Shown here: piece after piece, positions 24,735 through 29,509 of the stretch
Layout: every line of letters begins with the position of its first letter
Numbering within the stretch: the stretch's first letter is position 1
Sequence record: PP400788
Strand: one strand, 5' to 3'
Origin: Escherichia phage FL33
DNA length: 64,000 nt
Notes under the pieces: model-generated
Seen by the model: the letters and a program-made list of their open reading frames with translations, nothing else
What the model was told of the DNA's origin: nothing
The model's database searches: none
Translations under genes and position numbers: made by a program

Positions 24735-24737
24735 CAA

Positions 24738-24757
24738 TGGGGACCGAAAGGTCCCCA
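24738..24757. terminator. bidirectional hairpin terminator between 54 and the alt cluster
   Basis: tggggacc-gaaa-ggtcccca hairpin flanked by A/T runs. Confidence 0.8.
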
Positions 24758-24762
24758 TATTT

Positions 24763-25053
24763 TTATTTACGGAATGAAATAAAAGCAGCAACTGAAGCAA
24801 CTAAACTGTCTTCAATATAAACTTCAATTTTTACCGGAGCTTCTGACTCAAATTTACCTGTTACTACACCTTGGAAAATGCTTTCAGTCTGTTCTGGCTT
24901 TGAAAAATTTTCAGAAGGAAAAATTCCGAACTTTTTATCTGTTCCAAAAATTTTGATAAATTCGTCGTAAACCGCTTCATTAAAAGCGTTATCAGCAGGA
25001 ATAACGCCTTCAACTACGAGTTCTTGACCTAAAAAGCGCAAAGAAGATTTCAT
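24763..25053 (-). CDS. hypothetical protein downstream of alt paralogue
   Basis: 96-aa ORF; GAGGA 8 nt upstream of ATG, supplied by the 54-bp repeat cassette. Confidence 0.6.
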   Translation of the reverse strand: MKSSLRFLGQELVVEGVIPADNAFNEAVYDEFIKIFGTDKKFGIFPSENFSKPEQTESIFQGVVTGKFESEAPVKIEVYIEDSLVASVAAFISFRK

Positions 25054-25060
25054 TTTGTGT

Positions 25061-25114
25061 TCCTCATGTTATGTCAGTAAGATTACTATAACACAACACG
25101 AGGGACTTGTAAAC
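25061..25114 (-). repeat. 54-bp exact direct repeat, copy 1 (early-promoter + RBS cassette)
   Basis: Identical to 40404-40457; minus strand reads GTTTAC-18 nt-TATAGT...GAGGA. Confidence 0.9.
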
Positions 25115-27171
25115 TACATCTTGAACTTTTTAGACATTCCGTTGATGTTAACCAAAGAAGCCAAGATTTGAGAAACTTCGTTTTCCTCTTCTTTTGATTC
25201 TTCTACAAGGAATTGATTAAATCCAGCCATTAGACGAACTTCACCAGTTTCCATTAGATGGTCGCCATCATATACCGATTCTTCTAATTGTTCAGAAGGA
25301 GGAACGATTGTGCCTTCGATTAGATACTTATTATAAGCAGTTTCTTTCATCATGTACGTACTCACTTTATTAATCTTCAGCAAAATTCCACGCGGTAAAA
25401 TAACTTCAGCTTCTGATGGAAATCCTGATAAATGTCCTGGAACGATAACTTTGATTCGCTCAGCTCCTTTAATTACCATACCCACGCTAGTTTCAGCATC
25501 TTCATTCGCATAAGCAGAGTGACTGCCCATATGCATCAAATCTTCTGCGTCAACTGAACCTTCTCCTTCACCAGAAAATACTGCGCCGGAATCATCTAGA
25601 GCCATATAGTTTTTACCATACTCACCGAAGATATTTGGTTTAAGCGATGTGGATACGAAGTTCTTGAAGTAGAACATTTTATTTTCAATATTATGACGTA
25701 AAGTTTTAAAGGTAACTTCTTGTCCACGGTAAAGCGTAGTTCCTGGAGGAAGAACTGATCCTTTGGCAAAGGCAGAATCCATTGTCTCGATGTGTTTAAT
25801 AGCTCGTTCCATATATTCTTCACGGGTAGAATCCGGTTTACCTAAAAGGAACGAGTTCATTTCAACATATGAATCTGCACAATAATCTTCAATTACATCA
25901 GACTCAGCCTGAGTTAATCCTTTTAGAGTTACTTCAGTACTTGCATATTCATACGCTTGAGAAGCAGACTCATTAATCAATTTATAAACGCCATTCATGA
26001 CAAATTGAACAATAGCTACCTTTTCATCTGGTGTGGCTTTAGAACCTTTAACTAAATCATTGACAATTTTCTTAATAACATCAAAGCTATTAGAAATATT
26101 AATGTCAGCGAGATCGCTCAAAATTTTATCGGTTTTATAATCAAAAAATTCTTTATTCTTTAAATATTCTTGAGAACCTTGATGTGTTATATCGCTCTGC
26201 AGTCTGATAGACGGATCACGTAAACGCGCGTGGGCCAATGCAATATGATTTCGGAAGTTTTCTAGTTCATAATCGTTAGATTTAAAACGAGAAGCACTTC
26301 TCATACCACCGATAGCTCCTTTGCTGAAGTTTGAACCAATCTGAATAACGCCAGAGTTCATTGGTCCTTCTGCTTTATATACCGGAACTTTAGATTCAAA
26401 CTCTTGATATTTCTTGGCAGCGAAGCTATCACCCTGAAGTGAAGCATCAACAGTAGAATATTGAGCTTGTGCTGCTAATCGACGACTAATTTTAGTTTTC
26501 TGAATAACAGCTTGATCAGTGCGCTTATCATTTTCTAAAGCAATAGAAGCAGCAACAGCGACAGCTTTAGGAACAGCATTACCTGTTTTAACGTCTACAT
26601 AAACATCACCAACCTTTGATTCAACTTTTGTGAATAACTCAGTTGAAATAGGAGGTACACCTGGAATGTCTTCTAAATTGGCATTTTTACGGTAAACCAT
26701 AATATATGCATATTTTTTATCATAGTCCCAGATTTCCTTTAAAAGAACATATCGACCTGCTCCCTTAGTACGTACTAAACGGTCAGCAATAACTTGCATT
26801 TGACGAGCTGCGCCATTTGTTTTACTCTTTAGTACGCGGAATAGGCATGCGTCGATTTTATACTGTTTCATTGTTTGAAGAGCAGTATCAAAAACAGCAT
26901 TAATGACGCCAATTGGATTTCCACCCAAGTTTCTAAGCTTAACCAGCGATAATTTCTCGTTGACACCTATCATTACGATATGCATCATTTTATCGCCCGG
27001 CTTAACGTTTTTATTTGTATCACCGCCAGAGGTGTATGTACAAAATCTAAATCCAGGAAGCACGCTTTCTTCACCGGCTTGAATAGCAAAAATTTGAGGT
27101 ATTTTATGCTTAGGATTTAAGTTAACAACCGGCGCCGAAGCGCCGTCAAATAATTCTGTAATAAGTTCCAT
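25114..27171 (-). CDS. Alt-like ADP-ribosyltransferase, paralogue 2
   Basis: 685 aa; N-terminus MELITELFD... shared with the adjacent Alt; C-terminal R/S/E motifs (YRGQ, STS, EAEVILPRG). Confidence 0.85.
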   Translation of the reverse strand: MELITELFDGASAPVVNLNPKHKIPQIFAIQAGEESVLPGFRFCTYTSGGDTNKNVKPGDKMMHIVMIGVNEKLSLVKLRNLGGNPIGVINAVFDTALQTMKQYKIDACLFRVLKSKTNGAARQMQVIADRLVRTKGAGRYVLLKEIWDYDKKYAYIMVYRKNANLEDIPGVPPISTELFTKVESKVGDVYVDVKTGNAVPKAVAVAASIALENDKRTDQAVIQKTKISRRLAAQAQYSTVDASLQGDSFAAKKYQEFESKVPVYKAEGPMNSGVIQIGSNFSKGAIGGMRSASRFKSNDYELENFRNHIALAHARLRDPSIRLQSDITHQGSQEYLKNKEFFDYKTDKILSDLADINISNSFDVIKKIVNDLVKGSKATPDEKVAIVQFVMNGVYKLINESASQAYEYASTEVTLKGLTQAESDVIEDYCADSYVEMNSFLLGKPDSTREEYMERAIKHIETMDSAFAKGSVLPPGTTLYRGQEVTFKTLRHNIENKMFYFKNFVSTSLKPNIFGEYGKNYMALDDSGAVFSGEGEGSVDAEDLMHMGSHSAYANEDAETSVGMVIKGAERIKVIVPGHLSGFPSEAEVILPRGILLKINKVSTYMMKETAYNKYLIEGTIVPPSEQLEESVYDGDHLMETGEVRLMAGFNQFLVEESKEEENEVSQILASLVNINGMSKKFKM

Positions 27172-27174
27172 GAT

Positions 27175-29271
27175 TTATCCTTGAACGAACTTGTAAGGCA
27201 TGTTTGTAATATCTATGCAAGACGCAATAATTCCAAGAGATGATTCTACTTTCTGTTTAATATTTGATGAAACAAATGATGCAAAGTCAACTCTGTCTTC
27301 TATTTCAATATCACCTGTCATTGCAACTACTTCGCCGGTTTCCATTAAATGGTCTCCGTCATAGATTACCGATTCAGTGAGTTCTTCTGTGGTCATAACT
27401 TCAGCTTGAATGAGTTTTGTATTATTAGACGTGGTTCCGTCATTATTAGAAGCATCAGTTATTTTATTAACTTTAACCATCAATCCGCGCGGTAGAATAA
27501 CTTCAGCTTCTGTTGCTATTCCGAGACTTCCTGGATATACAACATTAACTTTATGAGCTCCATCAATTGCCCATCCTATTTGAACTTTAACGTATTCAGG
27601 ATTTTCTTTATACGCTCTTATTTCGTTTGGATTAATAGTTATTCCTTCTTCATTTTTATCAACCGTTAATTCGTTACGAGCTTCTGGTTCTAAAAGACCA
27701 ATACCAGCATGTGTAATTCCAAAACGCCCAAAAATGATAGGAGTTAAAGAAGTAGATACAAAATTTCTGAAATAGAACACTTTATTTTTAACTAGCGCTT
27801 CGTATATAGGAGCAGTCATACTTTGAGCACGATAAACTGTAATGCCTTCCGGTATGCGGTCACCATTTTCAAAAGCTGAATCTAAATTATTTATAGCAGA
27901 TTCAATTTCTTTTTCACTCATTACATCATATCGTTCTGGATTGTAACGACCTAAAAGAAGATTATTGATGTCAGTATATCCTGAACCACAATACTCTCTA
28001 ATGCCGCGCTTTTGTGATGGAGTATATTTAGAACCATCACGGGCAATAGTAATATCAATCATTGGACCTGCACCAATTCCAGAAAAACTATAAATCATTC
28101 TTTTGAGGAATTTAGTTTTTGCTGCGTTCCAGGAATTTTTAGTCATTTCTTCCCAGACTTCATCTGGCTGCCCTTTACGAGTTTTATTATGTTTATCAAG
28201 CCAATTATCTTTATATTCTTCAAAGAGTTGATTAACAGCTGCTGCGTATTTCTCTAAACATTTTATTGAAGTAGTTGGTTCATTTTTAATCGCATTAAGA
28301 ATTACATCTTTAATTTTTTCAGAAACTTCATTAACCTCACTTTTTGAAAAGAATTTATAGTCATAATGAAGTTCATTCGCAGTTCCTTCGGCAATAATTT
28401 TTGCTGCCTTAGTTTTAGAAGCTAATGAATTAATTCCAAGCTTCATTTCTTCTGCTTCGGGAATTAAAGGAGCGGTAGCAGGTTTATTGAAATTAGCTGC
28501 GGTAGATTCATACTTCTGGAATAATTCACTTTCAAATCTAGAAGATTCCAATGACTGACTTTGTGCAATTGCTCTACGGGAAATTTTAACTTTAACGATT
28601 ACAGCTTGGTCAGAACGTTTATCATTTTCTTGTGCAATAGATGCTGCAATTGCCTCATTTTTAGTTACTTGAGCTCCAGTATCTTTATTGATATAAACAT
28701 CACCGACCTTCGATTCAACTTTAGTAAAGAGCTCGGTACTAATTTCCGGAACCCCTGGAATGTCTTCTAGTGATACATTTTTGCGATGTATAAGAATATA
28801 TGCATACTTTTTATCATAATCCCAGAGTTCCTTAAGAAGGACGTATCTGCCACCTGAACGACTACGGATAAGTCTATCAGCAATAACTTGAATTTGTCTA
28901 GCTTGACCAGCAGTTTTAGACTTAAGAATACGGAGCATACAAGCATCAATTTTATACTGACGCATTGTTTGCATTGCAACAGTAAAAACCGAATTGATAT
29001 AATTAATTGGGCTTGGACCAAGACCTTTCAATTTAGCAATTGAACCTTTAGCAGTTAATGTAAAAGGAACAATATGCATCATTTTATCGCCCATCTTTAA
29101 ATCACGGTTAGTATCACCTCCAGATGTATAGGTACATAAACGAAAGCCTGGTTGCTCAATTGCGTCATCAACATGAACTGAAAAAATTTGCGGTATTTTC
29201 TTCTTTGGATTTAAGTTTGTAATCGGAAGAGTAGTATCTTCGTCAAATAATTCTGTAATAAGTTCCATCAT
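27175..29271 (-). CDS. alt: Alt ADP-ribosyltransferase (virion-packaged)
   Basis: 698 aa; MMELITELFDEDTTLPITNL...; motifs YRAQ, STS, EAEVILPRG; late promoter upstream; start may be the second Met (29268). Confidence 0.88.
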   Translation of the reverse strand: MMELITELFDEDTTLPITNLNPKKKIPQIFSVHVDDAIEQPGFRLCTYTSGGDTNRDLKMGDKMMHIVPFTLTAKGSIAKLKGLGPSPINYINSVFTVAMQTMRQYKIDACMLRILKSKTAGQARQIQVIADRLIRSRSGGRYVLLKELWDYDKKYAYILIHRKNVSLEDIPGVPEISTELFTKVESKVGDVYINKDTGAQVTKNEAIAASIAQENDKRSDQAVIVKVKISRRAIAQSQSLESSRFESELFQKYESTAANFNKPATAPLIPEAEEMKLGINSLASKTKAAKIIAEGTANELHYDYKFFSKSEVNEVSEKIKDVILNAIKNEPTTSIKCLEKYAAAVNQLFEEYKDNWLDKHNKTRKGQPDEVWEEMTKNSWNAAKTKFLKRMIYSFSGIGAGPMIDITIARDGSKYTPSQKRGIREYCGSGYTDINNLLLGRYNPERYDVMSEKEIESAINNLDSAFENGDRIPEGITVYRAQSMTAPIYEALVKNKVFYFRNFVSTSLTPIIFGRFGITHAGIGLLEPEARNELTVDKNEEGITINPNEIRAYKENPEYVKVQIGWAIDGAHKVNVVYPGSLGIATEAEVILPRGLMVKVNKITDASNNDGTTSNNTKLIQAEVMTTEELTESVIYDGDHLMETGEVVAMTGDIEIEDRVDFASFVSSNIKQKVESSLGIIASCIDITNMPYKFVQG

Positions 29272-29291: not shown

Positions 29292-29299
29292 TATTTATA
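29292..29299 (-). promoter_or_regulatory. late promoter TATAAATA (minus strand) upstream of alt
   Basis: Plus-strand tatttata is TATAAATA on minus, 21 nt upstream of alt ATG. Confidence 0.6.
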
Positions 29300-29304
29300 A
29301 AATT

Positions 29305-29322
29305 AAAGGCCCGAAGGCCTTT
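29305..29322 (-). terminator. hairpin terminator after gene 30 operon
   Basis: ggcc-cgaa-ggcc hairpin with flanking T-run right after the 62-aa ORF stop. Confidence 0.65.
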
Positions 29323-29509
29323 AATAATCTAGTGGTAAGAGAGTACGATATATTTCAAATTTTGGACCTTTTTCATAGGCATCAAATGTTTCTGTGAATT
29401 TATTATAAGCATATGCATCTATAAATTCAAGCATGATTTGTGATACAGAAGTAGAAACATCTCCACCTTCTTTTTGAGCAATGACAATTGTTTCTAAGTA
29501 AGCTTTCAT
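29321..29509 (-). CDS. hypothetical small protein translationally coupled to ligase
   Basis: 62-aa ORF whose ATG overlaps the ligase stop by 4 nt. Confidence 0.55.
   Translation of the reverse strand: MKAYLETIVIAQKEGGDVSTSVSQIMLEFIDAYAYNKFTETFDAYEKGPKFEIYRTLLPLDY

Follow-up and report, generated by a model that had tools for sequence, protein, structure and literature searches.

Introduction

In bacteriophage T4, about 40 copies of gpAlt are packaged per head by way of the prohead core, and the gp21 protease removes a small N-terminal peptide from the protein (PMC9958956), which is injected with the DNA (PMC9958956, PMC9697503, PMC5512222) and ADP-ribosylates RNA polymerase alpha at Arg265 along with other host proteins, a biochemistry described for T4 Alt only (PMC5512222, PMC9958956). 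We analyzed the alt locus of Escherichia phage FL33 (PP400788) in a stretch of 64,000 nucleotides, hereafter the window, whose positions serve as coordinates throughout. The source phage is a T2-like coliphage with two intact, adjoining Alt-type ADP-ribosyltransferase (ART) genes, for which we use the names altA and altB from the GenBank record of phage JS10. The explanation that best accounts for the data as a whole, to which we assign a probability of roughly 70%, is that the altA-altB pair of T-even phages encodes two arginine-specific ARTs that are packaged and injected, with AltB acting on substrates that differ from those of AltA.

T4 Alt itself (NP_049811; P0120), a capsid-packaged and injected NAD+:arginine ADP-ribosyltransferase, matches the window pair in genomic position, neighboring genes, Pfam and PHROG families, the R/STS/ExE residues and the N-terminal MELITE sequence. 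It differs from AltA in a central cassette of 1.1 kb and from AltB, to which it is 41% identical overall, in an unrelated helical region and in a Pro of the ADP-ribosylating turn-turn (ARTT) loop where AltB has F584. The activity, packaging and targets described are those of T4 Alt. In Dhakavirus, the JS10/JS98-type altA/altB locus (EU863409) has the same tandem arrangement, 3-nt spacing and alt.1/alt.-3 flanks, although its N-terminal domains (N-domains) differ strongly from those of the window pair, each phage having its own version. T4 holds a remnant counterpart of altB, annotated as alt.-1 and alt.-2 (NP_049810, NP_049809; phrog_23015, phrog_15247).

Other described systems are related by fold or by concept. 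ModA and ModB of T4 fall within the same Alt/VIP2 R-S-E ART clade, according to Iyer et al. (PMC5512222), but are set apart by their description as early, unpackaged, single-domain proteins of ~200 aa that are encoded elsewhere and lack both the N-terminal Tevenvirinae domain and the helical region. The C3, Vis, Certhrax and iota/CDTa/VIP2 toxins share the ART fold and the R-S-ExE signature with AltB at only 15–20% sequence identity; for delivery, these bacterial toxins use secretion signals or binary-toxin adaptor domains, not a phage-capsid module. MuF-ART fusions and polyvalent phage proteins embody the same concept as Alt, a head-associated delivery module combined with an exchangeable effector (PMC5512222, PMC9503650), but the Alt N-domain belongs to the Tevenvirinae-specific family PF26846, not to MuF. 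The tandem pair as such is already known, with annotations in hundreds of related phages: the JS10 record names altA and altB, RefSeq annotates both genes as 'Alt-like RNA polymerase ADP-ribosyltransferase' in many genomes, T2 has the pair, and alt duplications in T4 and 44RR were noted by Nolan et al. 2006 (PMC1524935), the only mention found in the searchable literature.

Results

Two adjoining genes predicted to encode Alt-family enzymes

The window matches Escherichia phage FL34 (PP400789), a Tequatrovirus, at 100% identity, and hundreds of relatives at 97%. A preliminary description, made from the sequence, had proposed two intact tandem genes on the minus strand, 3 nt apart, and the six-frame list of open reading frames (ORFs) gives exactly two genes at the locus, 27175..29271(-) with 698 aa and 25114..27171(-) with 685 aa. 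All the motifs that it quoted are present as well (MELITELFD, CTYTSGGDTN, KIDAC, RYVLLKE(L/I)WDYDKKYAY, YR(A/G)Q, FVSTSL, EAEVILPRG and HLMETGEV). The 698-aa altA frame is the maximal ORF; Shine-Dalgarno spacing and the annotations of T4, T2 and RefSeq favor the second ATG (29268), which is probably the true start and gives a protein of 697 aa. At the altA-altB junction (27172-27174) the sequence reads TAA-ATC-ATG, so that the spacer is 3 nt long and both genes lie in one reading frame, and the same spacing is found in JS10, T2, IME340, SHFML-26 and T4. Hypothetically, stop-codon read-through at this junction would yield a fusion protein of ~1,384 aa.

AltA and AltB align over their full length at 41% identity (pairwise BLASTP, E 6e-158), and the similarity is therefore not due to chance; the proposal that the two genes are paralogues arising from a tandem duplication is supported. 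Profile searches place both in the same family. The scores against PF03496 (ADPrib_exo_Tox) are 129.5 bits for AltA and 73.3 bits for AltB, compared with a gathering cut-off of 23.4, and phrog_802 ('Alt-like RNA polymerase ADP-ribosyltransferase') matches both proteins from end to end (AltA aa 1-696, E 4.5e-273; AltB aa 1-685, E 2.1e-253). Among database relatives, precomputed assignments of PF26846 (Tevenvirinae_ADPRT) together with PF03496 are found both for relatives of AltB at 87–98% identity and for AltA-type proteins; in NCBIfam, neither AltA nor AltB matches any family.

We aligned 62 representatives of the family, drawn from a search of 1.8 billion cluster representatives. The N-domain can be aligned across all 62, and ten columns are invariant, among them the catalytic Arg, the first Ser of STS and both Glu residues of ExE. 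Both window proteins retain these catalytic Arg, Ser and Glu residues, whose loss from one copy would, according to the preliminary description, have counted against its interpretation, and the codons were checked individually (Table 1). The ExE signature of R-S-E ARTs indicates arginine specificity, and by this signature AltA and AltB are both expected to be arginine-specific mono-ADP-ribosyltransferases.

Predicted structures agree with the family assignment. The AlphaFold2 (AF2) models reach a predicted local distance difference test (pLDDT) score of 83.8 and a predicted TM-score (pTM) of 0.75 for AltB, and of 85.5 and 0.80 for AltA, and both show the same four parts: an alpha/beta N-domain (to ~aa 200), an all-helical region (to ~aa 415), the ART domain (~aa 420-625), and a disordered linker or tail with short terminal helices. 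A Foldseek search of the PDB, run on the AltB model only, retrieved the ART toxins Vis (4xzk, E 8.4e-7), C3 (1gze, E 1e-5) and VIP2 (1qs1, E 9e-5), along with Certhrax and CDTa, at a target-normalized TM-score of ~0.6 and E values of 8e-7 to 1e-4; for AltA, the ART fold is deduced from its PF03496 and BFVD matches. Foldseek lists for the full-length models are dominated by ART domain matches, and both models align over their full length to one predicted Alt structure, from SP18 (query-normalized TM-score, TMq, 0.71 and 0.65). A sequence search of solved structures gave only a marginal match to Vis (E 0.55), and no solved Alt structure was found. Taken by sequence family and modeled fold, both genes encode bona fide Alt-family enzymes of the R-S-ExE clade with a C3/VIP2-like fold.

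Conserved N-domains and divergent effector regions

The resemblance between the two proteins is unevenly distributed. Their N-terminal regions, which had been called near-identical, turned out to share 67–68% identity over ~238 aa, with saturated synonymous divergence (dS 1.38). The middle does differ, as originally described, aa ~240-420 being only 7–20% identical and unalignable, but it spans ~180–190 residues instead of the ~250 first reported. Identity is only 36% between the ART domains and 43% between the tails. Profiles of the B-type and A-type middles compared with hhalign gave a probability of 0.7% (E 0.083), that is, no detectable homology; the middles may either have diverged or have been replaced. 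A shared fold is hinted at by the models, in which both middles are all-helical and both proteins align over their full length on the SP18 model.

Within the ART domain, the ARTT loop and the Arg motif separate the two types. B-type proteins have F/Y at position -3, as do 37 of the 62 family members, together with YRG, whereas the A-type clade that includes T4 Alt has I/P/Q/M at -3 with YRA, YRS or WRA. Judged by these two features, T4 Alt belongs to a derived clade, and AltB looks closer to the family norm; the aromatic residue that AltB carries three positions before the first Glu is typical of the ARTT loop, as in C3 and iota.

At the N-terminus, I/L-x-E followed by V/L-F-D is conserved across the family, with E6 and F8 present in at least 90% of sequences. 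Another family-wide motif, YDGD-x-(L/F)-x-E-(T/S)-GE, is found near the C-terminus (AltA aa 636-647, ~27328-27363; AltB aa 634-645, ~25237-25272); it holds an (L/I)-x-E tripeptide (in AltB L-M-E, with E641), the form of site cut by the gp21 protease; a disordered linker comes next, and then a conserved end, P-x-K-F-x-x. In the AltB tail, pLDDT falls below 50 at aa 630-636 and 645-659. The region of the YDGD motif could serve as another processing site or as a signal at the C-terminus.

Maintenance of altB and its truncation in T4

By tblastn, 396 phage records contain full-length altB at 95% identity or more; T2 is one of them, its copy carrying the label 'alt.-1'. Nei-Gojobori comparison of altB with three orthologues gave ratios of nonsynonymous to synonymous divergence (dN/dS) of 0.06–0.13 overall, with dS up to 1.5; the ratio is 0.03–0.04 for the N-domain and 0.11–0.21 for the middle. 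By these substitution patterns, altB is a maintained gene under strong purifying selection, not a decaying copy, and the same selection acts on altA.

According to the preliminary description, the T4 counterpart of the second copy is annotated as smaller ORFs. Indeed, the T4 annotation has alt.-1 (186 nt) and alt.-2 (204 nt) here and describes them as an 'old duplication of the first part of gene alt'. At the DNA level, the T4 segment is 95% identical to altB over the first 357 nt, including the ribosome-binding site, and 96% identical over the last 84 nt and the intergenic stretch before alt.-3; a single nucleotide missing from an A-run shifts the reading frame, and the 1,699 bp between 9-bp direct repeats are absent (Table 1). 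Scores against the PHROG families of alt.-1 and alt.-2 are 138 and 129 bits, respectively, for AltB, and 78 and 70 bits for AltA. On this comparison, alt.-1/alt.-2 of T4 is a recent truncation of a full-length altB and not, as annotated, an old partial duplication.

A probe spanning the deletion junction matches without interruption in 91 of 499 records (~18%), among them T4 stocks, RB55, RB59, ACG-C40, HY03 and slur03. The junction thus recurs across many isolates and therefore represents a natural lineage, not a laboratory artifact. Because T4 lost most of altB through this deletion, the gene has gone unstudied in the model phage.

An old pair with separate histories for N-domain and effector

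In Dhakavirus JS10 (EU863409), altA (694 aa) and altB (707 aa) lie 3 nt apart between alt.1 and alt.-3, and comparison of the four proteins gave opposite groupings for different domains. In the N-domain, AltA and AltB are 68% identical within the window and 66% within JS10, compared with 42–46% between the genera. In the remainder, each protein resembles its namesake in the other phage: window and JS10 AltA share 68% identity in the middle and 94% in the ART domain, and window and JS10 AltB 45% and 56%, whereas window AltB and the altA type of the other genus share 13% and 34% (for A versus B types overall, 13–16% and 34–38%). Informative sites in the quartet support grouping by phage over grouping by type in the N-domain (48 to 8; 1000 of 1000 bootstraps), and grouping by type over grouping by phage in the middle (36 to 0) and the ART domain (49 to 0); neighbor-joining trees over the 62 representatives agree with this grouping.

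By these comparisons, window AltB is a member of the JS10 altB-type orthology group. Since grouping in the middle and the ART domain follows paralogue type irrespective of genus, the altA/altB duplication is old and predates the split of Tequatrovirus and Dhakavirus. The N-domain groups by phage, and later homogenization within the genome, or module exchange, is therefore needed to explain it; the similarity of the N-termini thus reflects such homogenization or exchange combined with purifying selection, not recent common origin. The sequence of events originally envisaged, duplication followed by divergence of the central segment, is accordingly upheld as to paralogy but not as to the extent of the divergence, which covers the whole effector part (helical region and ART domain, the latter 36% identical), the N-termini having been homogenized or exchanged later. 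Recent gene conversion was considered for the similar N-termini and rejected, dS being saturated at 1.38 and the longest identical run being 27 nt; an older homogenization of the N-domain is still required by the quartet analysis.

Several observations in other phages concern the same modules. Public Logan assemblies, among them contigs from SRR24155011 and SRR19633722, contain hybrid alt genes with an A-type N-terminus and a B-type body (P0004, P0006, P0007), with crossovers at ~aa 111, 195 and 225, and one of them (L002) is the only alt gene between alt.1 and alt.-3 on a 65-kb contig. No 31-mer is common to window altA and altB at the hybrid crossover points. These hybrids are suggestive of unequal crossing-over in the N-domain; each comes from a single Logan assembly, so an assembly artifact is possible. 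In the Acinetobacter phages ZZ1 and Henu6, separate N- and C-terminal proteins are annotated as a 'split RNA polymerase ADP-ribosylase' (BFVD I3WW50, A0A410T5F4, A0A410T542), another sign that the N-domain and the effector are separable modules. Coliphages KAW1E185 (NC_054922), vB_EcoM_SCS4 (ON506924) and dhabil (MN850621) encode, in single or double copy, Alt proteins that are ~47–49% identical to both AltA and AltB, so that the three effector types compared here do not exhaust those found at the locus.

The altA gene itself is, by sequence comparison, a mosaic with T4-like ends and a central cassette closer to JS10 altA. Compared with T4 Alt at the protein level, AltA shows 100% identity over aa 1-252, ~95% over the final ~100 aa and 14–70% in the stretch between them. 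In sliding-window DNA comparisons, nt 1-745 and 1864-end are 92–100% identical to T4, and the central 1.1 kb is 46–75% identical to T4 alt and 60–95% to JS10 altA; dS to JS10 altA is 0.49 in the ART domain and 1.9 in the N-domain. The T2-type altA allele occurs at 90% identity or more in ~318 records, and 212 more fall in a 60–80% band that includes the T4-type allele. All four combinations of alt allele and altB state were found, represented by the window phage and T2, by SHFML-26, by T4 and by SG1.

Expression signals and neighboring genes

The gene order around the pair is conserved (gene 30, encoding DNA ligase, then alt.1, altA, altB, alt.-3 and gene 54) and corresponds to the position of alt in T4. 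Upstream of altA lies an exact match to the T4-type late promoter consensus TATAAATA, which has 18 exact matches in the window compared with 8.8 expected, and altB has a Shine-Dalgarno sequence. From consensus matches only, altA and altB are probably transcribed late, as one message from this promoter; T4 alt is a late gene (PMC9697503). A second exact TATAAATA at 27888-27895(-), within the ART domain of altA and 717 nt upstream of altB, could serve an altB transcript of its own or be a chance match.

The hairpin downstream of alt.1 looks like a terminator separating the ligase/alt.1 unit from the alt unit, although a consensus scan did not flag it; a conserved terminator upstream of alt was reported by Nolan et al. 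2006 (PMC1524935). The ligase gene and alt.1 overlap by 4 nt, the latter beginning within the end of the former. On the other side of the pair, the altB stop codon is immediately followed by an early-type promoter of alt.-3's own, TTTACA-17-TATAGT at 25085-25113(-), and beyond alt.-3 lies a bidirectional hairpin terminator (24737-24758) that it shares with gene 54. T4 can escape the CmdTAC defense system through mutations lengthening Alt.-3 at its C-terminus (PMC11618068); the window encodes the normal form of Alt.-3.

Table 1. Features of the alt locus in the window, with hybrid alt genes from public assemblies in the last row (contig positions).
Feature	Position	Strand	Remarks
altA	27175..29268	-	T4 alt orthologue, T2-type allele, 697 aa; maximal ORF start 29271
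altA N-terminal alpha/beta domain (aa 1-239)	28552..29268	-	I4-T5-E6 motif; 100% to T4 Alt, 68% to AltB; PF26846
altA central cassette (nt 745-1863; helical + ART)	27406..28524	-	distinguishes T2-type from T4-type allele
altA catalytic residues	27502..27831	-	R480 27829-27831; S505-T-S507 27748-27756; E587 27508-27510; E589 27502-27504; codons verified
altB	25114..27171	-	685 aa; orthologue of JS10 altB and of T2 ORF labeled 'alt.-1'; full-length form of T4 alt.-1 + alt.-2
altB N-domain (aa 1-238)	26458..27171	-	I4-T5-E6; 68% to altA N-domain, 46% to JS10 altB N-domain
altB all-helical middle, B-type-specific (aa 239-419)	25915..26457	-	13–16% to A-type middles, 45% to JS10 altB middle; helices pLDDT 85–95
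altB ART domain (aa 420-625)	25297..25914	-	R482 25726-25728; S507-T-S509 25645-25653; E587 25411-25413; E589 25405-25407; codons verified
altB F584, position -3 of ARTT loop (substrate-recognition loop)	25420-25422	-	Pro in T4 Alt
altB C-terminal tail (aa 626-685)	25117..25296	-	conserved YDGDHLMETGEV motif, low-confidence linker, terminal helix ending KFKM
Upstream 9-bp repeat CTAAAGAGT	26824..26832	-	T4-type deletion site
Downstream 9-bp repeat CTAAAAAGT	25125..25133	-	T4 retains one repeat copy, without the 1,699 bp between
Late promoter consensus TATAAATA	29292..29299	-	exact T4-type match, 21 nt upstream of MELITE start codon, just after alt.1 hairpin
Hairpin AGGCC-TTCG-GGCCT, then TTAATTTT	29307..29320	-	downstream of alt.1; read from sequence
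alt.1	29321..29509	-	62 aa; Pfam 'Phage blade protein' PF24647, E 1.6e-29; upstream neighbor
alt.-3	24763..25053	-	96 aa, DUF5498, PF17602 E 1.4e-64; downstream of pair
Hybrid alt genes	L002 5001-7055; L003 5001-7061		protein P0004; public assemblies

Discussion

Placed on the background of T4 gpAlt, these results suggest the following course of events. One late message from TATAAATA upstream of altA would cover both genes, and the shared N-domain, with its N-terminal (I/L)-x-E motif, would direct both proteins into the prohead core. By analogy with T4 gpAlt, the gp21 protease would trim the N-terminus of each; both proteins would then leave the capsid together with the DNA and consume host NAD+ in ADP-ribosylating arginines of host proteins, AltB most likely modifying a set of substrates other than that of AltA. 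We infer packaging and injection of AltB because its MELITE N-terminus is shared with the T4 protein and because its N-domain, more constrained than any other part, groups by phage lineage, a pattern expected for a module that has to fit the head-assembly machinery of a given phage. Different substrates are suggested by the helical regions without detectable homology, the 36% identity of the ART domains and the difference in the ARTT loop. Packaging, injection and distinct substrates of AltB are thus plausible, as is the role of 'target-recognition segment' that the preliminary description gave to the middle. We give even odds to a more specific proposal: that AltB is a second capsid-delivered ART with host substrates of its own, possibly defense or translation proteins, that was missed in T4; that the N-domain is an exchangeable, phage-specific delivery module homogenized within each genome; and that effector cassettes move between genera.

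Several points weigh against this interpretation. In the searchable literature, we found no proteomic or biochemical study of the translation, packaging, processing, injection or activity of AltB, no virion proteomics with two Alt proteins, and no functional study of the second copy. In the promoter scan, altB had no late promoter close upstream, so its expression hangs on read-through from altA. T4, RB55, RB59, ACG-C40 and other natural isolates thrive without altB, which is therefore dispensable in some conditions at least. Finally, the packaging role of the N-domain and the substrate-choice role of the helical middle are putative, both being drawn from conservation patterns.

AltB might be redundant with AltA, a second dose or backup acting on the same host proteins (RNA polymerase alpha and others) in a setting where more injected activity is useful. 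Such a role would suit the ExE arginine-specific signature and overall layout common to both copies, the continued success of the ~18% of relatives, including T4, that lost altB, and the presence in some assemblies of hybrids with an A-type N-terminus and a B-type body as the sole alt gene at the locus. It is harder to reconcile with the low identity of the ART domains, the 0.7% hhalign probability for the helical regions and the systematic differences in the ARTT loop and Arg motif, and mere backup fits poorly with two types that have coexisted, each under purifying selection, from a time before Tequatrovirus and Dhakavirus separated. We regard redundancy as unlikely.

Ranking below it is the possibility that AltB, though produced late, does not reach the next host and acts instead in the producing cell or as a dispensable component of the prohead core in which the ART activity is secondary. 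The lack of proteomic support in the searchable literature for AltB in virions would be in keeping with this, as would apparent expression of altB only as the distal gene of a late operon and the finding that alt-minus T4 packages more DNA, so that Alt takes up head volume (PMC3012670). Still, the N-domain is the most constrained part of AltB (dN/dS 0.03–0.04) and follows the phage lineage as that of AltA does, its MELITE/LxE motif is family-conserved and identical to that of the packaged, gp21-processed T4 Alt, and invariant catalytic residues are hard to square with a purely structural protein; we consider this reading, too, improbable. That altB is a decaying duplicate heading for loss, as the frameshifted, deleted remnant in T4 and 90 other records might suggest, is effectively refuted by the selection analysis (dN/dS 0.06–0.13 with dS up to 1.5), by the full-length ORF at no less than 95% identity in 396 records, by the intact catalytic residues and by the orthologues kept in another genus, and we see next to no likelihood of it.

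The tandem pair by itself is unlikely to surprise a specialist, and its importance is modest. What the present analysis adds is the origin of T4 alt.-1/alt.-2, the recognition that T4 is in the minority, the evidence, drawn from genome comparison, of selection on altB and of intact catalytic residues, and the pattern of delivery modules and effector cassettes. T4 is the reference for injected ARTs in the takeover of E. coli, yet ~80% of sequenced Tequatrovirus genomes, including that of T2, encode a second full-length enzyme. The domain pattern offers a clear natural example in which a phage keeps its delivery module unchanged and genera trade effector cassettes, and it suggests cut sites for the design of cargo proteins for T4-type capsids. 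Should AltB prove to be packaged and to have substrates of its own, the host proteins that a T-even phage modifies in the first seconds after infection would be more numerous and more variable than the T4 picture implies, and this larger set of modified proteins would bear on host range and counter-defense in therapy phages.

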